64,000 nt of DNA from an uncultured Clostridia bacterium (GCA_947166925.1 CAMVGD010000005.1:425-64424), one strand, 5' to 3'. Positions 3,684 to 21,158 are shown, counted from the first letter of the stretch. Numbers and translations are program-made. The notes: a model not told the origin generated them from the letters alone.

Positions 3684-3857
3684 TCAGTGCTTTCTCTTCG
3701 CAGTTTTTCGTTTTTTACCCTTTGGCTTCTTCTTGTCACGGTTGTACCACCAAGGAGACATTCTGTAAGTACCTCCCACGCGATGATACGATGTGTTGTC
3801 GCCATAGGGATCATAATGATATACACCGTCTGATTCGAGATATGTTTTTTTGCTCAT
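3684..3857 (-). CDS. Small basic protein (57 aa), absent from the ORF track
   Basis: My hand translation gives MSKKTYLESDGVYHYDPYGDNTSYHRVGGTYRMSPWWYNRDKKKPKGKKRKTAKRKH. A strong TAAGGAGG RBS lies 6 nt upstream. It is co-directional with the Toprim gene and 11 nt downstream of it. Confidence 0.4.
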   Translation of the reverse strand: MSKKTYLESDGVYHYDPYGDNTSYHRVGGTYRMSPWWYNRDKKKPKGKKRKTAKRKH

Positions 3858-3868
3858 AGTAAACCTCC

Positions 3869-4807
3869 TTATAGAGCATTCATGTTGTTTTGTCGATTCT
3901 TCTTGTGCGCGACAAGGATATCATTCCAGTCTTTTTGATTTTCTGGGAAATGGGAGGGGTACTGAGGTAGCGACTCGGCAAAATGCCTGCCGGCGTCGTC
4001 ATTGTCGAAACAAAGATGCAGAACTGCGAATGGATACTGGCGCTGAACACGCTTTATTGCCTTTGTACACCCACATCCGCCGATCGAAACGAAGGCGAGA
4101 CTATACTTCTCGCAGTCATATCCGTTTAGCTGGTAGAGATTCATCAAGGAAAGCGCATCAATTGCAGCCTCACACACATATATTGTCATCGGATTGCGGC
4201 TGCCGACAATCCAGTATCCATCATGATCGCAGTGAGCGGCCTTTCCCTTAAAAGGAAGACATGGGCTCGTTCCACGGATCTCAGCATAGTTGCAGTCCCG
4301 GGAAAGGAATACCGCGTTCACATGTCCGTTAGAAATCGTCGGGTAGACAATCTCCGGATCAAGGAGTGCAGCGTCGATGCCGCGCTTGTCGCAGAGGTAC
4401 GTCCGTAATTCTACGGGACACAGTGCACGAGGCGGCGCGACGAAGGCAGATCCTGCATCTGAAGGAACAGGCACATTCTGCGCCGTAGATTTGGATACAG
4501 CAACAGAGGCACTTCCGTGGGAGCATAATTCCGGATCGCGGCCATCGTCGTAATCACAAAGAGCACGAACAGCATCTTGGAAGGGCATGTCGAGATACTC
4601 CACGAGAAAGGAGATCGCATTATCGGCTCTGCCCGTTGAATTGTCATAAAAGCCGTGATCCGAAAAGACGACTTTCCGGTTTTCAGTCCACCTCGAATGG
4701 TTCTTACCATCCGGCTGCGTTTGCTCAGGATATACATTGAGCATAAAGCGGTTGAGATCTACGCCACGGGCGCATTCAATTTGATTCTTTCCTACACGAT
4801 TGGACAT
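3869..4807 (-). CDS. Toprim-domain primase-like protein (DUF3991/Toprim type)
   Basis: The C-terminal Toprim signature (ICVCEAAIDALS...LCFDNDDAGRHF) is present. This architecture is common on mobile elements. A GAGGAGG RBS precedes the start. Confidence 0.7.
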   Translation of the reverse strand: MSNRVGKNQIECARGVDLNRFMLNVYPEQTQPDGKNHSRWTENRKVVFSDHGFYDNSTGRADNAISFLVEYLDMPFQDAVRALCDYDDGRDPELCSHGSASVAVSKSTAQNVPVPSDAGSAFVAPPRALCPVELRTYLCDKRGIDAALLDPEIVYPTISNGHVNAVFLSRDCNYAEIRGTSPCLPFKGKAAHCDHDGYWIVGSRNPMTIYVCEAAIDALSLMNLYQLNGYDCEKYSLAFVSIGGCGCTKAIKRVQRQYPFAVLHLCFDNDDAGRHFAESLPQYPSHFPENQKDWNDILVAHKKNRQNNMNAL

Positions 4808-4819
4808 TATTAATCCTCC

Positions 4820-5227
4820 TCATTTATATGATTCTTTTTTCTGACGTTTTGAAATCTCTTTGTAGCTTCCCAGCAGCATCATCCGTTTCTCGGAACTAAC
4901 GCGACATGCTAAGTCAGGGTGTACAAAATAGGTGCTTGTTGATTCCCTTATCAAGAGATTCCACGATCGAAGCTTTTTGATGGTAAGCTTCACAGTACTT
5001 TCGCAGACGCCTGCCTGTTTAGCCAGTTCCGGATATGTTCCGTGTACTTGATTGCCGAAGTTCATTTTGCTTAACATTTTGAGCAGCACTTTGCATTCAC
5101 CATGTCCGAGGCGCTCACATGTGTCAAACAGCAGTTTGAGATCAATTTTGGCAAAACCAAAGTCGTTCTTCATATCTCCGATTTCGCCGGTGTTTTTGTT
5201 TAGGCCGAACCAGGTTACAGTTCTCAT
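4820..5227 (-). CDS. Winged-helix replication/maintenance protein (RepL-like)
   Basis: YPELAKQAGVCESTVKLTIKKLRSWNLL is a wHTH. It lies upstream of the primase-like gene and next to the iteron-like repeats. Confidence 0.5.
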   Translation of the reverse strand: MRTVTWFGLNKNTGEIGDMKNDFGFAKIDLKLLFDTCERLGHGECKVLLKMLSKMNFGNQVHGTYPELAKQAGVCESTVKLTIKKLRSWNLLIRESTSTYFVHPDLACRVSSEKRMMLLGSYKEISKRQKKESYK

Positions 5228-5269
5228 AGGGATGTACCTCCATCATTTGTATTGAGCAAAGATCCAAAA

Positions 5270-5525
5270 CCTAAAGGCTGCTGCCGCAAAACCAAGATCC
5301 ACAATATGCTGCCAAAACCTAAAGGGCTGATGCCCATACCCCCGGCTTCCCCCCAACCCCCCGCGCCCCCAAAGGGAGCTACCGGGGGTGTACCTAAAGG
5401 AAAAAGAGTTGGGTACGCCTACTTGATTGCCTAATCGGTAAGCGCCGCTATCATGCTGCCGGCCGAAAGGCCTTTAGGTATACTTGGTACCGTCATGTGC
5501 CGCACCATGGCCTTTGGCCTTTAGG
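5270..5525. repeat. Iteron-like repeats (CCTAAAGG / CCTTTAGG, 5 copies)
   Basis: CCTAAAGG occurs at 5270, 5318 and 5393. The inverted form CCTTTAGG occurs at 5471 and 5518. The first two copies share the longer unit CCAAAACCTAAAGGnCTGnTGCC. Confidence 0.55.
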
Positions 5526-5756
5526 TGTTACAATCCGTATCAGTATCCTATTAGATAAGAGACACGTTTTTCCTTTTGCCCTATAAAGCCAGACAACATG
5601 CGGGTTTCAGAGCTTTGGCGGGTGGTGAGCCTCCACCAGGAAACTGGTGAGCATTCACCACCTTGCAGCGAATCGATCAGAAAGGCTGTTTCTTCACTCA
5701 CATTAAGTATGCGTCGAATATTTTTGGCCGAAATGCGTTGTGTACGAGTTTTTAGT

Positions 5757-5785
5757 TTGACGAAAAGGCAAATCCGTGATAAAAT
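5757..5785 (+). promoter_or_regulatory. Sigma-70-like promoter for the 5843 gene
   Basis: TTGACG, 17 nt, then TAAAAT preceded by TG. Confidence 0.4.
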
Positions 5786-5842
5786 ATCAATATCAGATAT
5801 ATCTAATATATCAAAAATAAATGGAAAGGAGGTAACTGCAGG

Positions 5843-6157
5843 GTGAGCGATCAAAGGGACTATGACTATATTACGGTTACAATCTGCGGAAAGGAGTATT
5901 TGTTGATGTGCAGTAAGCTTGACGATTGCACGCGTAGTTTTATTCAAACGCTTGCGCTTAGGTTCGTCGAAACGCTTAATGAAGATCTGGATCCAACAGA
6001 AAGGATGGTGTATTTGCAAGGAAAGAACGATCCGGATACCCTATATTATTTTTTCATCAGACACCTTTTGAAGCTTAACCCGGACGTCGATTTCGTTTTA
6101 AAGCCGATATCATTGCGGGTGTATCCGTCAACGGTATTGATTAACCAAAGCTATTAA
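5843..6157 (+). CDS. Hypothetical protein
   Basis: GTG start after GGAAAGGAGG. A terminator hairpin lies downstream. I recognise no family. Confidence 0.45.
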   Translation: MSDQRDYDYITVTICGKEYLLMCSKLDDCTRSFIQTLALRFVETLNEDLDPTERMVYLQGKNDPDTLYYFFIRHLLKLNPDVDFVLKPISLRVYPSTVLINQSY

Positions 6158-6229
6158 AGAGAGAGCTTCATTCTTTGTTTTTTATAATCATCATGCTACA
6201 AGGAAAACAATCTCAATCCTCCTTGTGAT

Positions 6230-6256
6230 GGCCCGCTGCCGGCGGGCCTTTCTTTT
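6230..6256 (+). terminator. Rho-independent terminator
   Basis: GGCCCGC-tgccg-GCGGGCC followed by TTTCTTTT. Two further hairpin+T structures occur at about 6335-6360 and 6367-6397. Confidence 0.5.
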
Positions 6257-6627
6257 AATCAAAGAGCTGTTTTGTCATTGTATCTACAGAAGGACAGATC
6301 TCCATCGCCTTCGGAACAATATGTCTCGCAGAGACGCTGCCGCATGGCGGCGTTTTTGCGCTTTCACGCCCTGCAGCGCTGTTTGCAGGGCGTTTTCATA
6401 TTTTAGGGCCCTCATATTTGAGATGAGCGAACGGCTTGTTAAACATTGTTTAAGACATCCTCATACGGCTTTTCTTGCGACGCAAAAATGTTTGGAAAAC
6501 TTGGTTTCCTGTCCGATTTATCGAATAGATGATATGCGAGAATGAGTCGAAGGAGTCGAAGGAGGACGAAGACGTCTATATTGCGTGCAATATTGGCAAA
6601 GGTGGGTTATTATTTGCGAACTTTTAT

Positions 6628-6656
6628 TTGCAGATCCGATCGTGATGTGGTATAAT
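6628..6656 (+). promoter_or_regulatory. Promoter of the XRE-hsd operon
   Basis: TTGCAG, 17 nt, then TATAAT. Confidence 0.5.
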
Positions 6657-6685
6657 ACAAAAAACACATCTCGGAGGATTTGCTC

Positions 6686-6904
6686 ATGGGCGTGAGCTAT
6701 AAAAAGCTTTGGAAACTGCTGATCGATCGTGATCTTAAGAAGCAGGATCTCGAAAGGCAAGCGGGGATCAGCCATTTTACAATGAACAAGCTTTATCATG
6801 GGAAAAGTGTTTCAACGGATATCCTCGTAAAGATTTGTACCGCGCTGAATGTCTCGATGGATGACATTCTGGATATCGTTCCAAAGCCGGAGGCAGAGAA
6901 ATAA
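6686..6904 (+). CDS. XRE-family HTH protein, candidate controller of the R-M operon
   Basis: LKKQDLERQAGISHFTMNKLYHGKSVSTDILVKICTAL is a Cro/C1 HTH. The GGAGG RBS sits 8 nt upstream. Its stop codon lies 1 nt before the hsdR ATG. Confidence 0.75.
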   Translation: MGVSYKKLWKLLIDRDLKKQDLERQAGISHFTMNKLYHGKSVSTDILVKICTALNVSMDDILDIVPKPEAEK

Positions 6905-6905
6905 C

Positions 6906-9632
6906 ATGTTGACACCGGAGCAGAGGGCAAGGCAGGTTATAGACAAGAAGCTGAGAGAAGCAGGCTGGGAGATTCAGGATCTGAATCGCATCAATCCGAT
7001 TGCGTCCCTCGGCGTTGCCGTGCGAGAGTATCCGACGAGCACCGGGCCGGTTGACTATGCACTGTTCGTGGACGGCTCGCCCGTTGGCGTGATCGAAGCC
7101 AAGCGCAGCGAAGCCGGGGAGCATATCACTGACGTCGAAACACAATCCGGACGCTATGCAAACAGCACCTTCCGGTATGTGAACAATCCAAAGATTCGCT
7201 TTGCGTATGAAGCAACCGATCAGTTGGTGCGTTTTACCGACTATGACGACGTCAATTATCGTTCCCGTGAGGTGTTCTCATTCTTCCGCCCGGAGACGCT
7301 GAAGCGTTTGCAGGGACAGCAGGGAACGATTCGGAACAATATGCGGCATTTCCCGGCGTTGGATGAAACCGGGTTCCGTAAATGTCAGGTTACAGCAATC
7401 AAGCGGCTGGACGAGTCCTTCTCTTTGAACAAGCCTCGCGCATTGGTGCAGATGGCAACCGGCGCGGGAAAGACGTTCACGGCAATCACAGCAGCATACC
7501 GCCTCTTGAAATACGGCAAGATGAACCGCATTCTGTTCCTTGTGGATACGAAGTCCCTCGGCGAGCAAGCAGAGCGCGAGTTCCTTGCCTATACACCGAA
7601 CGACGATCCGCGTTCCTTTGCACAGCTTTACGGCGTGTGCCGTTTGAAGTCGAGCTATATTCCCTCCGACGTGCAGATCTGTATCAGCACGATTCAGCGT
7701 ATGTATTCGATCCTGAAAGGCGAGCAGTTGGACGAGAAAGCGGAGGAGACGCCGTTTGCCGAATTGAAGATGGCGGACAGGCAGGCCCCAAAGGAAGTCG
7801 TCTATAACGAGAAGTATCCGCCGGAGTTTTTCGACTGCATCATCGTCGACGAGTGCCACCGCTCGATTTATAACGTCTGGAGCCAGGTGCTTACTTACTT
7901 CGATTCGTTCATCATCGGCTTGACAGCAACGCCGGATAAGCGTACCTTTGCGTTTTTCCACGAGAACATCGTCAGCGAGTATTCGCGTGAACAGGCAATT
8001 CTGGAAGGCGTCAACGTCGGCGAAGACATCTTCATGATCGAAACGGAGATCACCAAGAACGGCGCGCATCTGATGAAGCAGTACATTGAGACGCGCGATC
8101 GGCTGTCCCGTACACGGCGCTGGCAGCAGATGGATGAGGATATCGACTACGCTGCGCCGCAGCTCGACAGAGACATCGTGAACCCGAGTCAGATCCGTAC
8201 TGTGATTCGCTCGTTCAAGGAAAACCTGTTTACGATGCTTTTCCCGCGTCGTAAGGAAGTACCGAAAACGCTGATCTTCGCCAAAACCGACAGCCATGCG
8301 GATGATATCGTGCAGTGTGTGCGTGAAGAGTTCGGCGAAGGCAACGAGTTCTGCCGCAAGATCACCTATTCGGCGGAGAATCCGGAATCCGTGCTCAGCT
8401 CCTTCCGCAATGACTACTATCCCCGCATCGCCGTCACCGTGGACATGATCGCCACCGGTACCGACGTAAAGCCCATCGAGTGTCTGATCTTCATGCGCGA
8501 CGTCCGCAGCAAGAACTATTTCGAGCAGATGAAGGGACGCGGCACACGAACACTCGACAGGGACGAACTGCAGAAGGTGACACCCTCTGCCACGGAGAAT
8601 AAGGATCATTTTGTGATCGTGGACGCTGTCGGAGTAACCAAGTCCGTCAAGACAGAAACCCGTTCGCTGGAGCGCAAACCGTCTGTTTCACTGAAAGAGC
8701 TGATGCTTCTTGTCGCCATGGGAAGCAAAGACGAGGATACCTTGACGTCGCTTGCAAACCGTCTCACGCGTCTCGATAAGCAAATGACGCAAGCTGAACG
8801 CCGGGAGTTCGCGGCGCTTGCGGGTGTTGGGATCGGCACCATTGCGGAGCGTTTGCTGAATGCGTTTGATGAGGATGTGATCCGCGCAGCAACCGGCGAA
8901 GCAGAGCCAACCGAGGAGCAGATGCATGCGGCGCAGAAAGAACTGCTGCGGCAGGCGACGGAGCCGATCTATAACCCGGACGTGCGGGAACGCCTCGAAA
9001 ACGTGCGCCGCAGCCACGATCAGATCATTGACAACGTCAATCTGGATGAAGTGCGGTTCGCCGGGTTCGACACGCAGCAGGAACAACATGCAGAACAGAC
9101 GATCTCCTCGTTCCGTGCATTCATTGAGGAAAACCGGGACGAGATCATAGCGCTGCGCATCATCTACAGCGAAGCGTACAAAAACCGTCCGATGGCAATC
9201 GAACAGTTGAAAGCGCTGTATGAAAAACTGAAGGCAAGGGGCGTCACTATACAGCGGCTCTGGGATTGCTATGCGATCAAACAGCCGGAAAAAGTGAAGC
9301 GCGGAACGGTTGCACAGCTTACCGATTTGATTTCTCTGGTTCGATTCGAGCTCGGCTATACCGATCAGCTATCGCCGTTTGCCGACAAAGTAAACTATAA
9401 CTTCATGGAATGGACGTTGCGCCGGAACGCCGGTTCCGTCCACTTCACCGAGGAGCAGATGGAATGGCTGCGGCTCATCAAGGATCATATCATTTCGTCC
9501 CTGTCCGTCACGCCGGAGGATCTGGATCTGAACCCCTTTGATCGCAAAGGCGGCCTCGGCAGATTCTACGCGGTGTTCGGCAAGGACTATAAGGCGATCC
9601 TGCAGGAAATGAATACGGAATTGGTGGCGTAA
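6906..9632 (+). CDS. hsdR: Type I restriction enzyme R subunit (EcoEI/COG4096-like)
   Basis: The N-terminus EQRARQVIDKKLREAGWEIQ, Walker A TGAGKT, DEAH-like VDECH and TATP motifs are present. The long C-terminal domain is typical of EcoEI-type HsdR. Confidence 0.9.
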   Translation: MLTPEQRARQVIDKKLREAGWEIQDLNRINPIASLGVAVREYPTSTGPVDYALFVDGSPVGVIEAKRSEAGEHITDVETQSGRYANSTFRYVNNPKIRFAYEATDQLVRFTDYDDVNYRSREVFSFFRPETLKRLQGQQGTIRNNMRHFPALDETGFRKCQVTAIKRLDESFSLNKPRALVQMATGAGKTFTAITAAYRLLKYGKMNRILFLVDTKSLGEQAEREFLAYTPNDDPRSFAQLYGVCRLKSSYIPSDVQICISTIQRMYSILKGEQLDEKAEETPFAELKMADRQAPKEVVYNEKYPPEFFDCIIVDECHRSIYNVWSQVLTYFDSFIIGLTATPDKRTFAFFHENIVSEYSREQAILEGVNVGEDIFMIETEITKNGAHLMKQYIETRDRLSRTRRWQQMDEDIDYAAPQLDRDIVNPSQIRTVIRSFKENLFTMLFPRRKEVPKTLIFAKTDSHADDIVQCVREEFGEGNEFCRKITYSAENPESVLSSFRNDYYPRIAVTVDMIATGTDVKPIECLIFMRDVRSKNYFEQMKGRGTRTLDRDELQKVTPSATENKDHFVIVDAVGVTKSVKTETRSLERKPSVSLKELMLLVAMGSKDEDTLTSLANRLTRLDKQMTQAERREFAALAGVGIGTIAERLLNAFDEDVIRAATGEAEPTEEQMHAAQKELLRQATEPIYNPDVRERLENVRRSHDQIIDNVNLDEVRFAGFDTQQEQHAEQTISSFRAFIEENRDEIIALRIIYSEAYKNRPMAIEQLKALYEKLKARGVTIQRLWDCYAIKQPEKVKRGTVAQLTDLISLVRFELGYTDQLSPFADKVNYNFMEWTLRRNAGSVHFTEEQMEWLRLIKDHIISSLSVTPEDLDLNPFDRKGGLGRFYAVFGKDYKAILQEMNTELVA

Positions 9633-9633
9633 G

Positions 9634-11547
9634 ATGGAAGATAGAAAAGAAGTACCGCGCACCCTTCAGAAATACCTTAATGATAGTAAGGGGTTCATGT
9701 CCGCATTAGGAGATTCCGGTGAAATACAGAAATTCTGTTGGTTTATAAAAAACGGGGTTATCGTAACAACAGATCATCCGGATGCATTCGTAAAGATCGG
9801 GAATGAAATCCTGATTATCGAGCATTTTGCGATTGATGGATATGAGGAAAAGGAACATGCAGGCAGTTTAGCTGCATTCAACGAGAGAGCAATACACGCA
9901 AGATTTACAAAACAAGAGTCGGTTAACGGGAGCAAACAACTTACTGCTCGTTTGGGGGTTAAAAACTCATATCAACAGTTCCTGGACAATTGTTACCGAC
10001 GTTTTGAACATCATTATCAGCAAATAGAGAATTATAAGAATCACCTGCGAGAAGAACACATTGCTGACGATGATTCACAATACACGATTTGTTTCCTGAT
10101 GGATGAAGTATCGCCTCTCGGAACACTAACGGTGGATGATGACGGAAAGATCAATCCGGTTTGCTTGGGGTATTCAAAAGAGTTTTTAGATTATTTTGAC
10201 AATAAACCGTATGTGGATTGGATCATATCGGCAATCATAAAGCCGGGCGAAGACTCCGTTGGATGGAAGTATCAGTCATATTTCTTCTCTCGAAATGATA
10301 TTTCCAAATGCAGAGAACGGATTGTTGATTATGCAAGGTTCCAGTTTTTAGAAAGTGATCCTTGTATTACAGAAGTCGAGCTTGAGATAAGAAAACAGTA
10401 CGCTCGAGTCGGAGATATTCTCCATATGGAAAAAGGTAAAATTCCTTCTGCCACGGCTATTGCTCCTAAGGAAGGTTATTTGCCCTATGTGGATATTAAA
10501 GCGTTTGAAAAGGGGATAGTAGATCGTTACGCATCGGTTCAGAACGCCGTCTTGTGCAATGATGGTGATCTGTTGATTGTTTGCGACGGATCAAGATCCG
10601 GGTTGACAGGGAAAGCAATCAAAGGAGTTGTTGGATCTACGCTTTCAAAGGTATATGCAGACGGACTGACAACAGATTATTTGAGATATTATCTGCAAAG
10701 CAAGTATGAACTGCTGAATACACGGAAAAAAGGGACGGGTACGCCTCACCTCAATGCCGACTTAATCAAGGAAGCCAGTATTTATGTGCCTTCTGTTGAT
10801 GAGCAAAATCATATCGTTTTAAAGATCGAGGAACTGTTCTCAGAACTGGATGCAGGCGTGGAAACGCTGCAAAAAATCAAGCAGCAGCTTTCGGTGTATC
10901 GCAGAGCAGTATTGAAAGAGGTTTTTGAAAGAGATTTCCCCAAGAAACAACTAAAAGACTTTTCAAAAGCCATTAGCGGATATGCATTCAAGAGCAGCAA
11001 GTATTCTCAAGATGGGGGTTATATTGTTGTTAAAATTGGGAATGTCAAAGATAAATACTTCGATTTTTCAAGAGATTTAACGAGAACTAATGAGACAGAT
11101 GATTCAATTCTCAATAAATACTTACTAAAACGTGGTGATTGTCTTATCACATTAACTGGATCAAGGGGAAAACGAGATTATGGATTCGTAGCTATGATTA
11201 CGGATCAGAGCAATTACCTCCTCAATCAAAGGGTTGCCGCTTTGCGCTTTGATCAATCGGTTGCGTATCCTCTCTTTTTTCAATATTACTTGGCTTCACC
11301 TGTGTATCGAGACATGTTTTTTATGTATGAAACCGGAAATGTTGGACAAGGTAATGTAGGTATAAAGGCACTTCTTGATCCTCAGGTTCCATTGCCAAGT
11401 ATTAAAGCACAGATGCAAATCGTTGAAGAACTTGAATCGCGTTTGTCTATATGTGATAGTATCGAACAAACAGTGAAGCAGGCATTGCAACAATCAGCAG
11501 CCATGCGCCAAAGCATTTTGAAACAAGCGTTTGAGGGAGGGCTATAA
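9634..11547 (+). CDS. hsdS: Type I specificity subunit with an extra N-terminal domain of about 255 aa
   Basis: Residues about 256-637 hold two TRDs and two coiled-coil conserved regions (EQNHIVLKIEELFSELD...; IKAQMQIVEELESRL...AFEGGL). Residues 1-255 have no HsdS-like sequence. The ATG lies 1 nt after the hsdR stop. Confidence 0.85.
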   Translation: MEDRKEVPRTLQKYLNDSKGFMSALGDSGEIQKFCWFIKNGVIVTTDHPDAFVKIGNEILIIEHFAIDGYEEKEHAGSLAAFNERAIHARFTKQESVNGSKQLTARLGVKNSYQQFLDNCYRRFEHHYQQIENYKNHLREEHIADDDSQYTICFLMDEVSPLGTLTVDDDGKINPVCLGYSKEFLDYFDNKPYVDWIISAIIKPGEDSVGWKYQSYFFSRNDISKCRERIVDYARFQFLESDPCITEVELEIRKQYARVGDILHMEKGKIPSATAIAPKEGYLPYVDIKAFEKGIVDRYASVQNAVLCNDGDLLIVCDGSRSGLTGKAIKGVVGSTLSKVYADGLTTDYLRYYLQSKYELLNTRKKGTGTPHLNADLIKEASIYVPSVDEQNHIVLKIEELFSELDAGVETLQKIKQQLSVYRRAVLKEVFERDFPKKQLKDFSKAISGYAFKSSKYSQDGGYIVVKIGNVKDKYFDFSRDLTRTNETDDSILNKYLLKRGDCLITLTGSRGKRDYGFVAMITDQSNYLLNQRVAALRFDQSVAYPLFFQYYLASPVYRDMFFMYETGNVGQGNVGIKALLDPQVPLPSIKAQMQIVEELESRLSICDSIEQTVKQALQQSAAMRQSILKQAFEGGL

Positions 11548-11548
11548 G

Positions 11549-12526
11549 ATGCCTTATATTGCACATGCCGGTATCAAACTAAAAGATGACTATCCAAATA
11601 ACAAGAAGAATGAATGGCATTTCATCAAAACGATCAATGAGATCGAATACAGATGGCGTTTGGCCGATGATTCGACTTACGATGTCATAGCGGGACTGTT
11701 TTTTGATCGAAAAGCGGCGCTTGACTGCGCAAAGCAGTTGTATGTTGCGTTGTTGTATGACTTGCTGAGTGCAGGCTTTTCAATTGAGGATGCCGGTTGT
11801 GACTCTTACGAACCGATGCTTTATGTTAAAGAATTAGATGGAGCTTATGATAGTTGGTTAGCTAATGAAGAGTATTTCTTCTGGAACAAGAAAAAGCAAG
11901 GTGCCGGAAGAACTGGCCCTGGCGTGTTTGAAGCTGAGAATGGCATTGAGGAGTTTGCCGAGTATGATTTTTTTGATATGTCTGTGAAGAAATCATGGGG
12001 TGATGCCAATCTGGATTTTGAAAGTGTTGATACTTATCTGTTTGAGTATTCAGAGGAGACTCAACAATTGTTGAATACAGTTGTCGTTGCTGATTCTGTT
12101 TTTGACTTTGGGTTGCGGATGACACTATATTGCGGACTTCTCGAACACTTAGCGGAGGATGCACAGAAAGAACCTGAGGTTTTACAAGTTTTGGATCAAC
12201 TGATTAAGAACGTCGAAGAATCCGCCCTTTCTTTGGAGCAAAAGCAGTCCTTACAGAACTTCTTGACTGAGGGCAAAAGGCAATCTTCGCGCAAAAGAAT
12301 TAAGGCGCTATGCCAGAAGTATGCAAAGTCAATGTATCATAAATATTCGACTGACAAGATCGTCAGCAAGGCATACGATGCAAGAAGTGCTTATTCGCAC
12401 GGGAACACAGGTGGTTATAGCGATGAAGCATGGTATATTAAGTTTGTTGTACTGGATGTTGTAAAGAACTATTTACAGGAGAAAGAAGGAAACGCGCAAC
12501 AATCTACAACCAAGGAACACTTTTAG
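11549..12526 (+). CDS. Hypothetical protein with a C-terminal HEPN-like Rx4H motif
   Basis: The ATG lies 1 nt after the hsdS stop and follows GAGGGAGGG. The motif YDARSAYSHG (R279-x4-H284) sits in a predicted helical C-terminal region. The function is inferred only. Confidence 0.6.
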   Translation: MPYIAHAGIKLKDDYPNNKKNEWHFIKTINEIEYRWRLADDSTYDVIAGLFFDRKAALDCAKQLYVALLYDLLSAGFSIEDAGCDSYEPMLYVKELDGAYDSWLANEEYFFWNKKKQGAGRTGPGVFEAENGIEEFAEYDFFDMSVKKSWGDANLDFESVDTYLFEYSEETQQLLNTVVVADSVFDFGLRMTLYCGLLEHLAEDAQKEPEVLQVLDQLIKNVEESALSLEQKQSLQNFLTEGKRQSSRKRIKALCQKYAKSMYHKYSTDKIVSKAYDARSAYSHGNTGGYSDEAWYIKFVVLDVVKNYLQEKEGNAQQSTTKEHF

Positions 12527-12550
12527 ACAGGTACTTGAGGGAGGGGTATA

Positions 12551-13666
12551 ATGTTCTGCAGTCATAAGAATGTGTTTATTTCACATTCATCAGCCAATAA
12601 AGAAATCGTTGAGCAACTGAGCTCCTATATTGAGAAGCTTGGTGTTTCATCGGAGCATATCTTCTGTTCGTCAGTCATTAGTCAAGGAATTGATAATGGG
12701 GACAAGCTTGGGAGGGCGATCTCCGGAGCGATTGAACAATCAAGAATTCTTGTATTCTTGCTGTCTCGTGATTTTGTCAACAGCGTTTATTGTATGCAGG
12801 AATTAGGAGTTGGCTGGCATTTGTCAGAGCAAGGAAAAGCAAAGTGCTTCTGTTTGGTTTTGCCGGATATCAGTCTTTCGGAGATCAAAGGCTTTATCAA
12901 TTCGAGCCTTGTAAAGTTTACGTTCATCGACGAGTCGCATAAAGATGAGTTGGGCCTTTTCGCAGAGAATCTTTGCAATGCGCTTCATATAACGCCGCTG
13001 AAGCATTCTGCACAAGCAAATAATGAGAGCGTTTTTTATAGTGCCATCAAAGAAAAACTAAACGCCCTGATATTGAAAAAGAATATAGAATTAGCATTAG
13101 AAAGCGAAAAGAAAGAAACGATAGATAAACAGAAGCGAATAATCGAAGAAAAGGATAGAGCAATCGAAGCATTGAAAGCAGCGAATAGTATCAGCAGTGA
13201 ACGGCTTGCAAGAGAAATGTATTATATCGAAAAGCGAACAATGGAAAACGATTTTGAAGCTTTGGGATATACAAATGGGATAAGTAAAGAATTCTTTAGT
13301 GGGGTATTCAAAGATTTTTGGTACGATATTATTGCACGATATGAAGATATCCTGAAAGGACTCGAGTTATCCTCTGAAAACGAAAATATGGAGATGTTGT
13401 TTGCGACAATTTATGCTGCGGATAACAAAGAAACAGCGGCATACGAGCATATGAAAAAGTTCATTCAATTGAACAATATGCAATTAGCGGACTATCAATT
13501 TGAAAATTTCTTCAAGGGATACCATGGTACAATGCGAGAAGTAATTGACATGCTGAAAGAAAAGGCAGCAAAAGAAAGGGAAGGCAGCACAAAAGATTCG
13601 TATCTCGATACGATACAGTTTCTCGAAGACCGTGAAAAGCGGTTGGGGTTCATATCTGAGGGTTAA
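12551..13666 (+). CDS. TIR-domain protein with a coiled-coil/helical C-terminal domain
   Basis: The N-terminus VFISHSSANKE...ILVFLLSRDFVNSVYCMQELG follows the bacterial TIR pattern, with a candidate catalytic Glu at E84. Residues about 175-215 are heptad-rich (KKETIDKQKRIIEEKDRAIEALK). Confidence 0.8.
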   Translation: MFCSHKNVFISHSSANKEIVEQLSSYIEKLGVSSEHIFCSSVISQGIDNGDKLGRAISGAIEQSRILVFLLSRDFVNSVYCMQELGVGWHLSEQGKAKCFCLVLPDISLSEIKGFINSSLVKFTFIDESHKDELGLFAENLCNALHITPLKHSAQANNESVFYSAIKEKLNALILKKNIELALESEKKETIDKQKRIIEEKDRAIEALKAANSISSERLAREMYYIEKRTMENDFEALGYTNGISKEFFSGVFKDFWYDIIARYEDILKGLELSSENENMEMLFATIYAADNKETAAYEHMKKFIQLNNMQLADYQFENFFKGYHGTMREVIDMLKEKAAKEREGSTKDSYLDTIQFLEDREKRLGFISEG

Positions 13667-13683
13667 ACAAAGGAGAAAATGAA

Positions 13684-14232
13684 ATGAGAACGAGAGAAAA
13701 AAGGAAAGACAGTATACTGCCGAAGAAATATCCTTCCGCAGAGTTTTTACACAACGTTTGTCTTTACGACTATCAACGAGTTCTTGATTCATATGACAAG
13801 GTGTATGAAAAAACGAACATAGCATTAGGATTCAGTGGCGTAATATTACTCGTAATTGTTTCGAGCATTGATTATACGATGATTAAAAGAATTGCGACAG
13901 CGACTAATTTGGAGTTGTTTACTATTCTGATGCTGTTATTGTGTTCGGCAGGAAGTGCTATATGCATCGTATGGGCAGTAATACAACTCCTCTTGCTTAT
14001 GAAGAGCAGAGCAGTTACGGTTATGGATAGTATTTCGATTCGAAACGAGGAAATCTATAGAGAATCTAATGAAGATGCTGCACTGTGGATGATTGATAAA
14101 TATACGAAGGTGATCAATGAGATCCGTCCACAAATACAGAAAAAGCAGAAAACGTTTAATGCTGCAGTAATAAAAATAATAATAGCTGTCATTCTATATG
14201 CGATTGTGTTATTGATACAGAAAGGATTATAA
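13684..14232 (+). CDS. Small membrane protein (about 3 TM segments), candidate effector
   Basis: Hydrophobic segments lie at about aa 46-62, 77-106 and 160-178. An AAGGAG RBS sits 8 nt upstream. The gene begins 17 nt after the TIR gene. Confidence 0.7.
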   Translation: MRTREKRKDSILPKKYPSAEFLHNVCLYDYQRVLDSYDKVYEKTNIALGFSGVILLVIVSSIDYTMIKRIATATNLELFTILMLLLCSAGSAICIVWAVIQLLLLMKSRAVTVMDSISIRNEEIYRESNEDAALWMIDKYTKVINEIRPQIQKKQKTFNAAVIKIIIAVILYAIVLLIQKGL

Positions 14233-14235
14233 GAA

Positions 14236-14421
14236 ATGAGCGAAAAAGACAAAACAATTCAGGACATTAATTCTGGGAAGGGATTGCCTCCGCTTAATCC
14301 ACAATCTTCAGGCAATTCATCTGGGCTTACGACAGAGCAGCGTTCTGATGAGACAGGATTGAGAAAAGACTGGTATACACTAAATCGGCAAAGTGATTCA
14401 AAAGGTTATAAGAAACCATGA
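14236..14421 (+). CDS. Small low-complexity protein (61 aa)
   Basis: It starts 3 nt after the TM gene stop and overlaps the hsdM start (ATGA). Its S/G/Q-rich composition makes coding status uncertain. Confidence 0.4.
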   Translation: MSEKDKTIQDINSGKGLPPLNPQSSGNSSGLTTEQRSDETGLRKDWYTLNRQSDSKGYKKP

Positions 14422-15911
14422 CTGATCAAACATCCACCATTGCCTCCAAGGTTTGGAGCTTATGCAATCCGCTGCGCGACGACGGCGTATCCTACGGGGA
14501 TTATCTGGAGCAGTTGACGTATCTGATCTTTTTGAAGATGGCGGACGAGTACGCCAAGGAGCCCTATAACCTCGATATGGGCATACCGGAGGGCTTTACC
14601 TGGGCGGACATGAACACGCTGAAAGGCGCGGAGCTCGAAGCCCAGTACAAAGCGACGCTCGAAGCGCTCGGCGAAAAGGGTGGCATCCTGGGCAGGATCT
14701 TCAAGGGCGCCGTCAACAAGATCAACAACATCGCCATCTTCTACCGCGTCGTGCAGATGATCGACAGGGAGAACTGGGTTTCCATGGCTTCCGACGTCAA
14801 GGGCGTTATATATGAAGAACTGCTGCAGAAGAACGCAGAGGATATCAAGAGCGGCGCAGGGCAATACTTCACACCGCGTCCACTGATCAGAGCGATGGTG
14901 GAGTGCATCCGCCCGGAGCCAATGAAAACGATCGCGGATCCGTGCTGCGGCAGCGGCGGATTCTTCCTTGCTGCACAGGCGTTCCTTGCCGATCCGGCGC
15001 ATTATCAGTTGGATCGTGCGCAGAAGGAGTTTCTGAAAAAGGAGACGTTCTACGGCAACGAGATCGTCGCAGCGACGTACAAGACGGCGCTGATGAACCT
15101 GTTCCTGCACAACATCGGCGATATTTACAGCAACAATGTGCCGATCGCGTTTGGAGACGCGCTGCTGATGGATCCGGGTTATCGCGTGGACTACGTGATG
15201 ACAAATCCGCCCTTTGGCAAAAAATCATCGATCACGCTCACGAATGAGGAAGGCGAGCAGGAGGATGAGGATCTTGTCTATAACAGAACTGACTTCTGGA
15301 CGACGAGCTCGAACAAGCAGTTGAACTTTGTGCAGCATATCAATACATTGTTGAAGGCGACGGGCAAGGCGGCGGTTGTCGTCCCTGATAACGTGCTGTT
15401 CGAGGGCGGCGCGGGCGAAACCGTGCGCAAAAAGCTGCTGGAGACAACAGATCTGCATACGATCCTGCGCCTGCCGACGGGTATCTTTTATAAGCCCGGC
15501 GTGAAAGCAAATGTGATCTTCTTCGACAAGCGTCCGGCGTCTGCACAGCGACAGACAAAGGAAGTCTGGATCTATGATCTGCGCACCAATATGCATTTCA
15601 CCCTGAAGCAGCATCCGATGACGGACGCCGATCTGCAGGACTTCATTCGCTGTTACCACCCGGAAAACCGGTACGAGCGCACGGAAACCTATTCGGAACA
15701 GAACCCGGACGGACGCTTCCGCAAATTTGACGTCGAGCGCGATATCCTCACGCGGGACAAGACGAGTTTGGACATTTTCTGGATCAAGGACAAGTCGCTT
15801 GCCGATCTGGATAACCTGCCCGCGCCGGACGAGCTTGCGGCAGATATCATTGAAAACCTCCAGAGCGCTTTGCAGAGCTTTTCCGAACTCCAGGCGCAGT
15901 TGAAGGGATAA
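14418..15911 (+). CDS. hsdM: Type I R-M N6-adenine DNA methyltransferase subunit
   Basis: The HsdM N-terminal domain (LRDDGVSYGDYLEQLTYLIFLKM), the AdoMet motif DPCCGSGGF and the catalytic NPPFG are all present. Confidence 0.92.
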   Translation: MTDQTSTIASKVWSLCNPLRDDGVSYGDYLEQLTYLIFLKMADEYAKEPYNLDMGIPEGFTWADMNTLKGAELEAQYKATLEALGEKGGILGRIFKGAVNKINNIAIFYRVVQMIDRENWVSMASDVKGVIYEELLQKNAEDIKSGAGQYFTPRPLIRAMVECIRPEPMKTIADPCCGSGGFFLAAQAFLADPAHYQLDRAQKEFLKKETFYGNEIVAATYKTALMNLFLHNIGDIYSNNVPIAFGDALLMDPGYRVDYVMTNPPFGKKSSITLTNEEGEQEDEDLVYNRTDFWTTSSNKQLNFVQHINTLLKATGKAAVVVPDNVLFEGGAGETVRKKLLETTDLHTILRLPTGIFYKPGVKANVIFFDKRPASAQRQTKEVWIYDLRTNMHFTLKQHPMTDADLQDFIRCYHPENRYERTETYSEQNPDGRFRKFDVERDILTRDKTSLDIFWIKDKSLADLDNLPAPDELAADIIENLQSALQSFSELQAQLKG

Positions 15912-15931
15912 GAAGGAACGAGGCAGAGCGC

Positions 15932-16375
15932 GTGTACGAGAATCTGAAGGCATTTTTAGATGAATTACCGACAACAGAATATGGCAGGTGGCATTACGAT
16001 CGAGAGAACGATGGTTCGCTGGAGCATCCGTATCAGTTGCCATTTGTGATCTATAACCCAATCGTCGTAAAGCTTATGGAAGCCATTCAGCAATTCGTTG
16101 ACGATCACCCTGACATGGAGCTCACCCGATACGGAGAAATTCTGGAGCAGTCTGGCGTCAAATGGAACTTGGAATCTATGAGCAGTGCCAACGTCAGTAC
16201 GCTGGACGGCAGAACAGTAGTCGCTCTTTTAGTGGCAGCAATGCGCGCAGAACGTTTTTGCGACGGGGCATTCTTTGGCTTCTGCATAGACGGAAGCATT
16301 CAAAAGTGGCTCTTGCGACTGAAGGAGATAGATCAAGGATGCTTAAAAGTATCTTTTACCAAACACGCACCTTAA
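15932..16375 (+). CDS. Hypothetical protein, last gene of the hsd operon
   Basis: GTG start 20 nt after hsdM. A terminator hairpin follows at 16515. I cannot assign a family with confidence. Confidence 0.55.
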   Translation: MYENLKAFLDELPTTEYGRWHYDRENDGSLEHPYQLPFVIYNPIVVKLMEAIQQFVDDHPDMELTRYGEILEQSGVKWNLESMSSANVSTLDGRTVVALLVAAMRAERFCDGAFFGFCIDGSIQKWLLRLKEIDQGCLKVSFTKHAP

Positions 16376-16514
16376 TGCATGATTGAAATAATAGGAAATA
16401 GACGAAGAAAACCCAATAATATTAGCATTTAGTTTGTTTTCTTAAAAGTATCTTTTCTCACGTGTCTTTTTTTCGCCGGAAAACGTATAAAACAATGAGG
16501 TTTACACGACACGC

Positions 16515-16549
16515 AATCCCCGCCAATTAACCGGCGGGGATTAGTGCAT
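16515..16549 (+). terminator. Rho-independent terminator ending the hsd operon
   Basis: AATCCCCGCC-aattaacc-GGCGGGGATT is a 10-bp perfect stem. Confidence 0.55.
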
Positions 16550-16687
16550 TTTCAGTCGCTTCTTTGCCTGCTGACACGTTTAGTTTAAAGTACGACACTT
16601 CAAGCAGAATCATGGAAGCAACATCATGTTACAATCGTGATTCAATAGCGTGTTTTTCATACTAAGACTGAGAAAGGAGGTGAGATC

Positions 16688-17041
16688 ATGGCTCAATTAT
16701 CTGTAAATAAAGAAGTCTGCATCGGCAGTTTCTTGCAGTTATCAGATTCAGCGAAAGCGTGCTATTTCGTTCTGCTGCTTTTCGCGGATCGCGCAGGCTT
16801 TTGTGATAAAGCAATCATTTTAAGAGTCAGCGGAGATCGCGCAGACTCTGCGCTTAAAGAACTGGTTACAACCGGATTCATTTTGGAAATCGAAGACGTC
16901 CTCGTCATTCGTCATTGGTACCTTCACGACGCAAATCGCAAGACGAATAACCCAACTATGTTTACGGAAATTCGTAACAGGCTTGTGATAAAGGAATGGA
17001 TTTACGATCTCAAAGGGGCAAAGCATGTAGCAAAGGGATAA
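16688..17041 (+). CDS. Hypothetical protein (weak resemblance to phage replisome-organizer N-terminal domains)
   Basis: It has a strong RBS (GAAAGGAGGTGAGATC-ATG). The resemblance is weak. Confidence 0.45.
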   Translation: MAQLSVNKEVCIGSFLQLSDSAKACYFVLLLFADRAGFCDKAIILRVSGDRADSALKELVTTGFILEIEDVLVIRHWYLHDANRKTNNPTMFTEIRNRLVIKEWIYDLKGAKHVAKG

Positions 17042-18217
17042 TTTGGAGATCAAAGCAATCTTAAAAATTGAGACAGTAAATTTTGAAGATCACCGTGTCT
17101 ATATTAGAAGAAAATTAGATTGTCATGGATTTGTCGTAAAAATCGCGGTATTTGCTGCAAAAGGGCAGTAGAAATCTTCATTCGAGTGCGATTTGATAAT
17201 CGAACGTTACAATATCCTATGCTTTTTAATGAATCAAAGCTTGGAGACTTTGTCTTATGAACCCCGTTGTATTTGCATACTAACAAAGAGCGGGGAGAGT
17301 CCCAAAGGGACATGCCGTGATGAGCTCTCGGCTCGTCGCTAATGTATTACGTCATGAACGGTATTCTCTCATCATGGCAAAGCCCATTCAAACTGATGGC
17401 AGCTTGGATGGGCTTTCTTTTTGGAATGAGCATCTGGCTGAAAAGCATCCCTGATCATCATAATACAAGTAGGAGCAGGCAAATTGCTGCGGTTGCTTAC
17501 CTCCAATCAGATACACCTCCGAGATCATCAAGGACGAATTACACTCTCATCGCAGCGAAAGAACCGCCTCGGGCACGGCATCCGGGGCGGTTTTCGCGTT
17601 TACTGGAAGATAGTGCTCTGCAAGGGCGTGTGGGATTCGCAAGGCCTCTCGATCATGGACACACGAATCAGATGTATAGGGTAATATGGTGCAAGGCGAC
17701 AGGATTGATCGCATGAAACATACAATACCATTAGGACAATGCCCAAACACGAGATTCCACCGGTTTTACTTGGCCGGCAGGATTATTACATTTTAATCGC
17801 CTATCTTACAAATGAATAAATATGAGGCGCGTGCATAAATTTTTGCGCACAAAGAAACCGTAATTTATGAACTGTATGTTGATGATTGTAGATCATAATA
17901 ATCGAATAACTATAATATAATTGCGGAATAATTGTAATATTGAAATGAACGAAAAATGAATAATGCATAAATGGTTGGCAAGATAAAACGCCATCGCAAA
18001 AATGAAATTGCAAAAAAATCCCTAAATATCTGGATAAATAGGACATGCAAGAATTATGATCGAGGCAATCGCACTTCGATAATGTATATATATGCACAGC
18101 TACGGCATGGTTGCGAGAGATCCAAAGTGTATGTTATACTTTCCACATTCCGAAGAGCTCAACGGAAACCGAACAAATAAACACAGGTTAGAACGTAAGA
18201 AAGCGAGGTACGTAAGA

Positions 18218-18535
18218 ATGAAGAATAACCTGGAAACCACCCCTTTGACGGCAGAGCAGCGAACCCTGCTGAAAAACTACGAATCGCTCCTGAAGCTTGC
18301 AGCAACAAAATTTTACGCTAACGCCGGCGATGTGGCACCGTATTTGGGAAGCAACGCATTTGACTTCCGTCATGCCTGCCTCGACGGGCAGTACCAGAGC
18401 GGATTTCCTTTTTTCGTGATCGGCAAAGATCGTCCGACGCTTAAGATCCCGATCGTACCATTTATTGCGTGGATCTCGGGGGCACAGGCATCAACGATCT
18501 ATGAATCGATCGAACTCGTCGCAGCAACGGCATAA
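18218..18535 (+). CDS. Hypothetical protein in the excisionase position, upstream of int
   Basis: The ATG at 18218 is preferred. Calling it an Xis rests on position only. Confidence 0.4.
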   Translation: MKNNLETTPLTAEQRTLLKNYESLLKLAATKFYANAGDVAPYLGSNAFDFRHACLDGQYQSGFPFFVIGKDRPTLKIPIVPFIAWISGAQASTIYESIELVAATA

Positions 18536-18642
18536 GCGAGCGAATCGTAGAGAAAGCAATGGGAGCCCGCGATACGGAACGGGCTCCCATCCATCCAATC
18601 CATGAACGTAAAAATGAAATGCACGAAAGCGAGGTAAAAAAC

Positions 18643-19785
18643 ATGGAAAACAGAATGAGCATGAAAAACGAAACACAGGCACCCAAGACGAGAAAGGCCA
18701 AGGCGTCGAACAATGGATCCGGAAGGACGTTTAAGCGCGGTAAATATTGGGCATATGAGATCCGCCGCAAATACTGGGACGGAAACCAAACAAGATATGT
18801 AAGCAGATACGAAGGCAGCTTCAAAACGAAAACGGAAGCCGACAAGGCGAGATACGCAGCACTTGAGGATGTTGAGAAGGAAATCGAAGCAGGCCGGCGC
18901 GGCGATTTGGTGGCGAAGGGAAAGGCGAAGATGACGTTCAGGGATATCGGAAAGGAATTTCTCGCGCTCCATCAGCATAGCTGGGGCAAAAAGACAAGAC
19001 AGTACATGCAAACGAACTTCGAGAAATGCAAAGACTACCATGATCGCGCATGGGACAGCATCACGATGACGGAGTTTCAGGATATCGTCAATATCGGAAC
19101 GACGTATTATACGGCGAAGAAATTGAAGCTTCTGTTGTCCGGTATGAGCAAGTGCGCTGTGAAGTATTACCCGCTGATGAGAGATTATATTCGGGAGTGC
19201 GTTCTTCCTCCGGAGCCAGAGGTGGAGAAACTCGTATTCGAAAGGGAAGAGAGGGACTTGCTTTGGAAGGCAGTCGATCGGAACAGCGAACTGAAGGATA
19301 TGAGCGACGATGATCGTTTTGCGGCAGCAGCATTGCTGATTATGATCTATTCAGGCATGCGCCCAGGCGAGCTTCAGAATATCAATCCGAAGGATATTGA
19401 TCTTGAGAGGAACAGAATCAGCAAAGGCGGGATCAAAACCAAGCGAGGGAAAACCGGTTCGATCTTCGTGATAGACAAGATTGCGCCCCTTGTCCGGGAA
19501 TGGATGCTGGGAAGCAACAGATTTTCGGAAGTGTCGATCGAAACGATCCGTAAAAGAGTCAATGCGCTGCAGGACAAGCTCGGAATGCCGCATCATGTGC
19601 TTTCAGGGAGCAGAACGACAACGGCAACGACACTTGCCGAAATGAGAACGAGCGAAGATGATCTTACTACGATCATGCGTCACACGAACGTAGCCATTAC
19701 GCGCAAGTATTATGACAAATCCGGCGATGACAACGCCATTGAAGCGCTGAGCCGGTTTGACAGAGAAACGACAGAAGAAAACTAA
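18643..19785 (+). CDS. int: Tyrosine-type site-specific integrase
   Basis: The N-terminus has an AP2-like arm-binding region (RGKYWAYEIRRKYWDGNQTRYVSRYEGSFKTKTEA). The C-terminal catalytic region contains SGMRPGEL and MRHTNVAITRKYYDKS (H...Y). The start could lie as far upstream as 18559. Confidence 0.85.
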   Translation: MENRMSMKNETQAPKTRKAKASNNGSGRTFKRGKYWAYEIRRKYWDGNQTRYVSRYEGSFKTKTEADKARYAALEDVEKEIEAGRRGDLVAKGKAKMTFRDIGKEFLALHQHSWGKKTRQYMQTNFEKCKDYHDRAWDSITMTEFQDIVNIGTTYYTAKKLKLLLSGMSKCAVKYYPLMRDYIRECVLPPEPEVEKLVFEREERDLLWKAVDRNSELKDMSDDDRFAAAALLIMIYSGMRPGELQNINPKDIDLERNRISKGGIKTKRGKTGSIFVIDKIAPLVREWMLGSNRFSEVSIETIRKRVNALQDKLGMPHHVLSGSRTTTATTLAEMRTSEDDLTTIMRHTNVAITRKYYDKSGDDNAIEALSRFDRETTEEN

Positions 19786-19823
19786 ATGAAAAATGATGTG
19801 CACGTTAGAAAGGAGATAAGACT

Positions 19824-20549
19824 ATGAGCAAAAAGATGGATTTAACGAATCAACGATTTGGCAGATTGACAGTGATTGGAGAAAACCCGGAACCGTATCG
19901 TTCACGTTCAGGAAGCATAACGCGAAGATGGAACTGCCGCTGCGATTGCGGAAAACTGGTGACGGTTCTACAAGGTTCGCTGACAACCGGTAACACAAAA
20001 AGTTGTGGGTGCCTATCAAGAGAAAAAGCTGCATCCAGGCACAAGGATTTAAGTGGAAAGCGTTTTGGGAAACTGGTTGTCGTTAAACGTATCCCGCTGG
20101 ATAATAGCCGCGCTGATGGATACCAAAATGGTTGGCTTTGCAAATGCGATTGCGGCAAGGAGGCTGTTGCATGTACAGAGGATTTAACAAGCGGCCATAA
20201 AAAATCGTGTGGATGTTATGCTGTAGAAAGTGCATCTGAATTAGCCAGGACTGATGGACGCAACGTATTCGGAAGATATGAAGGAACAATGATTTCTCAA
20301 ATCAAGCCGGGACGGAAACCGAGCAAGTGCAACAAGTCCGGTGTTGTAGGCGTTCATTGGAATGTTCGAAGACAAAGGTGGATTGCACGGATTGGCTTTC
20401 AAGGAAAGAAAATCACAATTGGAAGCTTTCAAAATCTTGATGAAGCAACGAGGGCCAGAAAGAAAGCGGAAGAAAAATACTTCGCGCCGATCATCGAACG
20501 GTGGAATGAAGAATTGAGAAAGAAAATGGGAGGGGCTCTTGCTTGTTGA
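19824..20549 (+). CDS. AP2-domain DNA-binding protein with two Cys-rich repeats
   Basis: Two FGRLTV/FGKLVV...WxCxCDCG...SCGC repeats are followed by an AP2-like segment GVVGVHWNVRRQRWIARIGFQGKKITIGSFQNLDEATRARKKAE. Confidence 0.8.
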   Translation: MSKKMDLTNQRFGRLTVIGENPEPYRSRSGSITRRWNCRCDCGKLVTVLQGSLTTGNTKSCGCLSREKAASRHKDLSGKRFGKLVVVKRIPLDNSRADGYQNGWLCKCDCGKEAVACTEDLTSGHKKSCGCYAVESASELARTDGRNVFGRYEGTMISQIKPGRKPSKCNKSGVVGVHWNVRRQRWIARIGFQGKKITIGSFQNLDEATRARKKAEEKYFAPIIERWNEELRKKMGGALAC

Positions 20550-20629
20550 AAAGCAAGAGCCCAAAGGAGGATAAGACGCGAAACATGAACGAACAGAATG
20601 AAATGCACGTTAGAAAGGATGAAAAGATA

Positions 20630-20923: not shown

Positions 20924-21158
20924 TAATGCAGAGCGTTAAAAGGAAGTCTCCATGTATGAGAAATGTCGCCTCATCTTCGTATCTTTTGGAATAATGAACT
21001 TTTCAGCTAAAGCTTACGGGTATTTTCCCGTAAGTTTTCTTTTTTTATCTGCTGATTTGCCAGGTTATCGAAGCAGAAATCAGATTGTTGACGAAAACTG
21101 CTTCGATAACTCGCGTTTTGCGTAGGATTGAACTATGACAATAGAAATACTTGATCCA

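Follow-up and report, generated by a model that had tools for sequence, protein, structure and literature searches.

Suicide-type accessory genes placed between the core hsd genes of type I restriction-modification (R-M) operons, where they would be co-transcribed as a second line of defence, are known from PrrC and RloC. PrrC is reported almost exclusively embedded in type I R-M loci (10.1101/2024.01.29.577857) and is kept inactive by its R-M partner (PMC3710099); HEPN genes of the ApeA family have already been noted in R-M operons as well (PMC3710099). The "guilt-by-embedding" survey (Payne et al. 2024 preprint, 10.1101/2024.01.29.577857), from which the PDC models of PADLOC derive, dealt with uncharacterised genes nested in type I R-M and bacteriophage exclusion (BREX) operons, which are predicted defences. 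We analysed a 64,000-nucleotide stretch of DNA from an uncultured Clostridia bacterium (CAMVGD010000005.1:425-64424; hereafter the window), in which positions 9634-14421 form the hypervariable middle of a type I R-M operon that is headed by an XRE gene and has the order hsdR-hsdS-hsdM. The embedding of defence genes in R-M and BREX operons is a known phenomenon; the novel part of this locus is a pair of genes, encoding a small transmembrane (TM) protein and a partner of 61 amino acids (aa), that has no PDC match.

The centre comprises a 637-aa "hsdS" open reading frame (ORF; 9634-11547) followed by four genes, all on the forward strand (+): a 325-aa gene with a putative ApeA-like HEPN signature (11549-12526, module 1), a TIR gene with an SpbK-like TIR_2 domain (12551-13666, module 2), the TM gene, whose 182-aa product is distantly PycTM-like (13684-14232, module 3a), and the gene of its conserved hydrophilic partner, the 61-aa protein (14236-14421, module 3b). 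Its conserved flanks are hsdR on the left (6906-9632, +), encoding an EcoEI-type R subunit (ResIII, EcoEI_R_C), and hsdM on the right (14418-15911, +; N6_Mtase 9e-68, HsdM_N). We compared this arrangement with more than 100 related loci, retrieved via the 325-aa, TIR and TM families and designated below by L numbers, and searched the proteins against Pfam, NCBIfam and PADLOC-DB v2.0.0. An earlier note on this DNA, made from the sequence alone, had recognised domains of the defence or abortive-infection type inside a type I R-M operon, which Pfam and PADLOC bear out, and had suggested that the four genes could be a combined backup defence, with TIR and TM proteins as a pair. From the comparison we favour another reading, to which we give a probability of about 0.6: the slot holds three independent accessory modules stacked side by side, each mobile alone and a candidate for anti-phage function, and not one four-gene system.

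The split into three modules is drawn because each of them is found alone in the same hsdS/hsdM slot of related operons. The 325-aa gene is the sole cargo between hsdS and hsdM in L007-9 and L012, follows the TIR gene, in the order opposite to that of the window, in L010 and L011, and lies outside any hsd operon in L004-6 and L013-16 (near a PDC-S53 gene in L013). A TIR gene of 82% identity is the sole cargo of the slot in L104, an operon whose flanks are 94-95% identical to those of the window; the more distant members of its family, in L099, L101, L103 and L105, are lone genes outside hsd operons, with no TM gene, and are surrounded by housekeeping genes, part of a defence island or carried by another mobile element. 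The TM and 61-aa genes together are the only cargo of an hsd slot in L020, L022, L025-27, L031, L056, L067, L071 and L108-111. Among 80 metagenomic loci centred on the TM gene, a TIR gene adjoins it in a single case, itself 99% identical to the window. The TIR, TM and 61-aa genes occur without the 325-aa gene in L106; the TIR and TM proteins of L106/L107 are 78% and 74% identical, respectively, to those of the window, and their surroundings differ. Across these loci the three modules assort independently and are found with and without hsd genes, and the TM protein has its constant partner in the 61-aa protein, contrary to the pairing proposed in the earlier note. Its remark that the combination is not a named system holds, in that no PADLOC v2, Pfam or NCBIfam model names it.

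In blastn comparisons of the window with L104, L010 and others, similarity ends at 9633 and resumes at 14401-14418, at the same place as a step in GC content. hsdR is 95% nucleotide-identical to L104 up to 9633, and hsdM 94% from exactly 14418. The GC content is 0.52-0.57 in hsdR (7001-9250) and 0.51-0.57 in hsdM (14251-16000), and 0.35-0.43 in each 500-nt interval across 9751-14500, so that an AT-richness formerly judged by eye is now computed (0.35-0.43 vs 0.52-0.57). Because the breaks of similarity at 9633 and 14418 coincide with the GC step, we regard the centre, i.e. the specificity gene plus its cargo, as a replaceable block between hsdR and hsdM. Such a block would be swapped by recombination in the conserved hsdR and hsdM flanks, which would explain the breaks in both identity and GC at 9633 and 14418.

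The TM protein has three to four hydrophobic segments in all by hydropathy (around residues 46-68, 76-110 and 158-180). The PADLOC PycTM model PDLC02364 matches 27 of 30 members of its family (best E value 2.6e-8, typically 1e-3 to 1e-5), and the model of the 2TM effector of CBASS (cyclic-oligonucleotide-based antiphage signalling systems) matches 12 of the 30; the match of remoter members to PycTM is no better. A profile search of 1.84 billion representative proteins returned 290 clusters and, among the 150 listed, nearly all are of 170-200 aa or shorter fragments. The effectors of Pycsar (an antiphage resistance system based on a pyrimidine cyclase) and CBASS resemble the TM protein in being small multi-pass membrane proteins of similar length, with profile similarity over the whole protein, but the constant partner here is a hydrophilic protein of about 60 residues, and no adjacent cyclase or CD-NTase (cGAS/DncV-like nucleotidyltransferase) was identified. 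A cyclase domain is absent from the window's operon, which was scanned against the domain libraries, unlike the other embedded genes of related loci. The precomputed Pfam tag PF18967 carried by several TM homologues was not reproduced, as no family member matched PF18967 in the copy of Pfam searched.

A homologue of the 61-aa gene lies directly 3' of the TM gene in 77 loci, with 43 distinct sequences. The family keeps the motifs DI(K)SGKGLPPL, G(I/L)TTEQR and GIxxExF(T), and in most loci a gap of -8 to +3 nt separates the TM stop codon from the start of the 61-aa gene. The protein is strongly hydrophilic (grand average of hydropathy -1.47), has no hydrophobic segment, and found no family match in Pfam, NCBIfam or PADLOC. 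Judged from its sequence conservation and spacing, the 61-aa ORF is a real conserved gene, translationally coupled to the TM gene. A Rst_2TM_1TM_TIR system, considered as a candidate for the locus, was set aside: no PADLOC model so named matched, and the 61-aa protein lacks a hydrophobic segment.

The genomic distribution of this pair is restricted. Of the 80 TM-centred loci, 54 are BREX loci, in the order BrxC-PglX-[pair]-PglZ-BrxL (BREX genes verified by Pfam), 20 are type I hsd operons, and the other six are mostly short contigs. The type I operons have two architectures, hsdR-hsdS-[pair]-hsdM and hsdM-(RhuM)-hsdS-[pair]-hsdR. An hsd or BREX gene is present on at least one side of the pair in 74 of the 80 loci, and also in L106-L111. 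When the TM proteins are clustered at 80% identity, 14 of 16 clusters are embedded in this way; of the other two, one is not embedded but solitary, and one is too short for a call. The embedding was also tried as a prediction: a TM homologue of 47% identity, from outside the 80, sits in a chromosomal XRE-hsdR-hsdS-[TM, 59-aa gene]-hsdM operon. A tblastn search of plasmids with the TM protein gave no relatives, and scans of viral contigs with the TIR, TM and 325-aa family profiles found nothing.

The largest BREX group (L036-L066, e.g. L062 8700-11850) carries 3-4.5 kb of extra genes between the 61-aa homologue and pglZ, so that the BREX slot also stacks cargo. These extra genes include one for a 399-aa protein with an N-terminus resembling that of a 451-aa protein of L013. 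A RhuM-family gene (Virulence_RhuM, 4.5e-112) lies between hsdM and hsdS in L032, L033 and L035 (e.g. L033 3584-4678), in operons with the pair. In L108-L111 (7734-9008) the TM protein is identical while the hsdS lengths differ (404 and 424 aa), and hsdR is split into two ORFs in L110 and L111. This suggests that replacement of the specificity gene, and decay, are ongoing in that operon family.

Compared with the described embedded systems, the analogy with PrrC and RloC made in the earlier note is apt for the genomic arrangement, and the pair is similarly near-exclusive in its embedding. It does not extend to the proteins: no homologue of PrrC or RloC is found among the four, none has an ABC-ATPase plus HEPN architecture (there is no ATPase domain), the slot would be shared by three unrelated modules, and the pair is present in BREX too. 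The genes share with the PDC systems their nested position in type I R-M or BREX operons, but the 325-aa, TM and 61-aa proteins match no PDC model of PADLOC-DB v2.0.0.

The 325-aa protein of module 1 had been called HEPN-like. The Rx4H motif (R279-S-A-Y-S-H284) and the segment MTLYCGLLEH are invariant in 29 homologues. The HEPN match is weaker than had been implied, since HEPN_Apea scores 24.0 bits (5.5e-5), just under the Pfam cut-off of 24.4; 19 of 29 family members match this domain at E<=0.1, with 5.5e-5 as the best value. The family is small (36 clusters, all full length). An AlphaFold2 model of the protein (pLDDT 89.5, pTM 0.85) consists of an alpha/beta domain (1-140) and a helical domain (169-323). 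The family profile has no match at E<=1 among PDB sequences, and the model none at E<=1e-3 in Foldseek searches of PDB and BFVD. In Ec2ApeA, which has about 580 aa, the N-terminal and Mid domains are helical and the HEPN domain, of 250 residues, is split; ApeA cuts tRNA anticodon loops upon binding of a deoxydinucleotide (10.64898/2026.01.26.701840). The protein studied here shares with ApeA the Rx4H motif of a putative HEPN signature and the single-gene organisation, but has 325 residues with a small alpha/beta N-terminal domain in place of the three-domain architecture (N-terminal, Mid, split HEPN; ~450-580 aa). It does not match the PADLOC ApeA system model and gives weak "Cas13-ApeA" matches only. 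It may be a compact variant of the ApeA-like HEPN proteins, and it is a predicted RNase. Beside this family, L011 (1663-2364) carries between hsdS and the TIR gene a 233-aa gene with no family match on record, a further type of cargo.

The TIR protein of module 2 matches TIR_2 (Pfam, 3.5e-13) and, in PADLOC, spbK (1.4e-22). The closest solved relative of its TIR domain is SpbK, PDB 9phb (profile 1e-15; Foldseek 2.6e-5, TM-score 0.73). In the model an SpbK-like TIR domain (1-145) is followed by an 88-residue helix (152-239) and a helical bundle (246-364). Residues E84, G86 and W89 align with E192, G194 and W197 of SpbK, which are residues mutated in the SpbK study (PMC12847820); over 30 sequences of the family E84 and W89 are invariant and G86 nearly so. 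SpbK is clustered by the YonE portal protein, leading to NAD+ depletion, and SpbK-type TIR domains make N1-cADPR (cADPR, cyclic ADP-ribose), whose target is unknown (PMC12847820). SpbK of Bacillus subtilis ICEBs1 has the TIR domain nearest in sequence and fold to that of the window's protein, which keeps the catalytic Glu as well as the W/G residues of the active region; both are single-gene proteins borne on mobile elements. The order is reversed: SpbK has an N-terminal portal-binding domain and then the TIR domain, which is N-terminal here, and the SpbK N-terminal domain has no detectable similarity to the C-terminal part of our protein (the lone non-TIR alignment scores -1.8 bits). Thoeris likewise has a TIR protein adjoining a putative effector, but no SIR2, SLOG or Macro domain is found in this operon, the neighbours of the TIR gene vary and no effector pairing is conserved. 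The ThsB matches (Pfam ThsB_TIR 0.036, PADLOC ThsB1 2.1e-5) are far weaker than that to spbK, and the TIR domain matches PDC-S66 weakly (1.2e-5). Among TIR proteins of the single-protein kind it appears to be a new member whose sensor part differs, and it is a predicted enzyme.

A different account of the locus would make the four genes one signalling system: infection would be sensed by the TIR protein, whose nucleotide product, e.g. an isomer of cADPR, would be the signal that opens the PycTM-like effector and perhaps activates the HEPN RNase, with the 61-aa protein as a regulator. PycTM-type effectors in Pycsar are nucleotide-gated. The four genes are tightly linked and co-oriented, the TIR gene precedes the TM and 61-aa genes in L106/L107 as it does in the window, and the N1-cADPR product of SpbK-type TIR proteins is in want of a target (PMC12847820). 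Yet a TIR gene is lacking from 79 of the 80 loci centred on the TM gene, among them every one of the 54 in BREX operons; the 82%-identical TIR gene stands alone in the same slot, its remoter homologues are found without a TM gene, and the 325-aa gene too occurs alone. In work on a published operon with both a TIR protein and a PycTM protein, moreover, a chimera of TIR and PycTM did not protect (PMC13069673). We consider a single signalling system improbable, and retain three separable modules. Some points weigh against the latter reading and against what we make of its parts. TIR, TM and 61-aa genes are adjacent in two arrangements, those of the window and of L106, so that TIR and TM may be linked functionally in a facultative way. 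It was by way of the cargo genes that the loci were found, which makes the occupancy of the slot a biased estimate, and many of those in BREX operons are human-gut contigs with nearly identical sequences, a single 80% cluster holding 35 of the 54. The similarity to PycTM is weak for the window's own TM protein (E 0.009), and the putative HEPN assignment lies under the Pfam threshold and is without a structural match.

What the TM/61-aa pair does is a separate matter. That it is found in two different methylation-based systems, each time at a set place behind the specificity or methylase gene, suggests a link to the state of the host system. DNA-mimic anti-restriction proteins inhibit both type I R-M and BREX. 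The pair could then be a hitherto undescribed guard of methylation-based immunity, monitoring the specificity/methyltransferase complex and killing by membrane disruption when this complex is disabled, e.g. by such DNA mimics; this is a speculation that we hold very tentatively. Just as tentatively, such a guard could be described as a membrane-acting counterpart of PrrC or PARIS, with a PycTM-like effector and no cyclase. Alternatively, the two genes could be a toxin-antitoxin-like addiction pair stabilising the R-M or BREX operon or the mobile element, and the HEPN and TIR proteins could likewise be selfish toxins. They do form a translationally coupled two-gene unit on mobile or variable DNA, in which a small, probably disordered and labile partner accompanies a predicted membrane-active protein. 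A pure addiction module would not be expected near-exclusively in methylation-based defence operons, at a fixed position after hsdS or pglX; a small gene 3' of the putative toxin is the less common order, and the searches of plasmids and viral contigs found no relatives. This makes addiction an unlikely explanation. The pair's invariable place in three operon architectures, immediately behind the specificity or methylase gene and ahead of the core gene that comes next, could also be that of an accessory subunit, e.g. one localising or regulating the methyltransferase and specificity complex at the membrane, and not a separate killer. Close relatives of the window's operon (L104, L007, L010, L012) nevertheless lack the pair, most type I R-M and BREX systems function without such genes, and the TM family resembles cell-killing effectors (PycTM, the CBASS 2TM effector), which leaves a subunit role with little likelihood.

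All three modules appear to carry signatures of cell-killing effectors, and the functions given here are predictions. Their transcription would start at the R-M promoter. The HEPN protein of module 1, like ApeA and PrrC, would be an infection-activated RNase halting translation. In module 2 the C-terminal coiled coil and helical domain would bind a phage protein and cluster the TIR domains, which would deplete NAD+ as in SpbK. In module 3 the TM protein would be a lethal membrane-disrupting effector, while the small protein would restrain it or sense a trigger, and the module may fire once the surrounding methylation-based system is disabled.

A cassette resembling one operon-encoded system can be a stack of unrelated modules, which matters when defence systems are named automatically. 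Cargo genes accumulate at the hsdS/hsdM junction in this R-M family and at the pglX/pglZ junction in BREX, and both slots can be mined for more candidates. The TM/61-aa pair is a compact two-gene lead for experiments, with a clear conserved genomic signature, a PrrC-like distribution across two types of system and no PADLOC v2 model as a pair. If it does respond to inactivation of its host system, it would tie type I R-M and BREX to a shared back-up mechanism, and anti-restriction proteins from phages of the gut and rumen could be assayed with it in a simple way.

The 637-aa "hsdS" ORF is itself composite, Methylase_S being confined to residues 256-637. hsdS proper (10399-11547, +), with two target-recognition domains, matches Methylase_S in two stretches and PADLOC Specificity_I at 4e-76. 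A 255-residue domain without a Pfam or PADLOC match (9634-10398, +) is fused in frame to its N-terminus, and the fusion is identical in two independent assemblies. Homologues of this domain are separate genes 5' of hsdS in L106 (28% identity, 2e-30) and L011 (32%). Its identification with the 263- and 273-aa genes of L007 and L010 was rejected, as alignment shows the latter to be unrelated, membrane-anchored proteins. The hsdR/hsdS junction is a second cargo position, where at least two more unrelated families occur: these are proteins of 260-273 aa with an N-terminal hydrophobic helix and no library match (L007 6043-6834, L010 4624-5445, L020 2641-3438 and L104 6966-7787).

A small integrative element (window 2800-21600) carries the R-M operon. 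Its other genes include those for RepL (4820-5227, -), Toprim (3869-4807, -) and an integrase (18559-19785), and near its right end there is a tRNA-Asn gene (21511-21585, -). No flanking direct repeats were found at its ends. The identical arrangement was recovered from two independent assemblies, and the relatives are gut and rumen Clostridia. L104 and L010 have related elements that differ in their cargo.

Mapping of the ORFs and reading of the sequence itself gave the order XRE-hsdR-hsdS-[4 genes]-hsdM-DUF6508 gene, with all ORFs on the + strand, and the operon order and every junction described in the earlier note were recovered as such. One nucleotide separates hsdR from hsdS and again hsdS from the 325-aa gene; the 24 nt between the latter and the TIR gene contain GAGGGAGGGG, and the 17 nt between the TIR and TM genes contain AAGGAG, which are the ribosome-binding sequences given in the earlier note. 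The TM and 61-aa genes are 3 nt apart, and the 61-aa gene overlaps hsdM by ATGA. PADLOC REase_I, Specificity_I and MTase_I all match, i.e. the type I R-M backbone is complete, with hsdR, hsdS and hsdM in one operon. The first gene (6680-6904, +) encodes an XRE/HTH_26 regulator (HTH_26 6.3e-20); an XRE gene is also present 5' of hsdR in L010, L026, L056, L071 and L108.

A promoter-like site precedes the operon at 6627-6656 (+; TTTGCA, 18-nt spacer, TG, TATAAT); it is no more than a match to the consensus, and in shuffled sequence sites of this kind are as frequent as in the region. In a consensus scan of the region, strong terminator-like hairpins are limited to 6366-6393 and 16515-16542. The second (+; 10 pairs, 7 of them G-C, then a T-rich tail) closes the operon. 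Because of the promoter-like site at 6627-6656 and the restriction of strong hairpins to these two places, the four cassette genes are probably co-transcribed with the type I R-M operon as a single unit. A strong promoter-like match at 12524-12552 was rejected as an internal promoter of the TIR gene, as the start codon is overlapped by the -10 element of this match, and shuffled sequence contains sites of this sort just as often.

The DUF6508 gene (15932-16375, +; DUF6508 6.6e-10) marks the end of the conserved backbone. It lies directly 3' of hsdM, also in L104 (94% nucleotide identity), and so seems to belong to the backbone of the operon. A perfect 16-nt direct repeat, CTTAAAAGTATCTTTT, is present at 16342-16357 and 16441-16456, i.e. 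at the end of the DUF6508 gene and in the spacer before the terminator-like hairpin.

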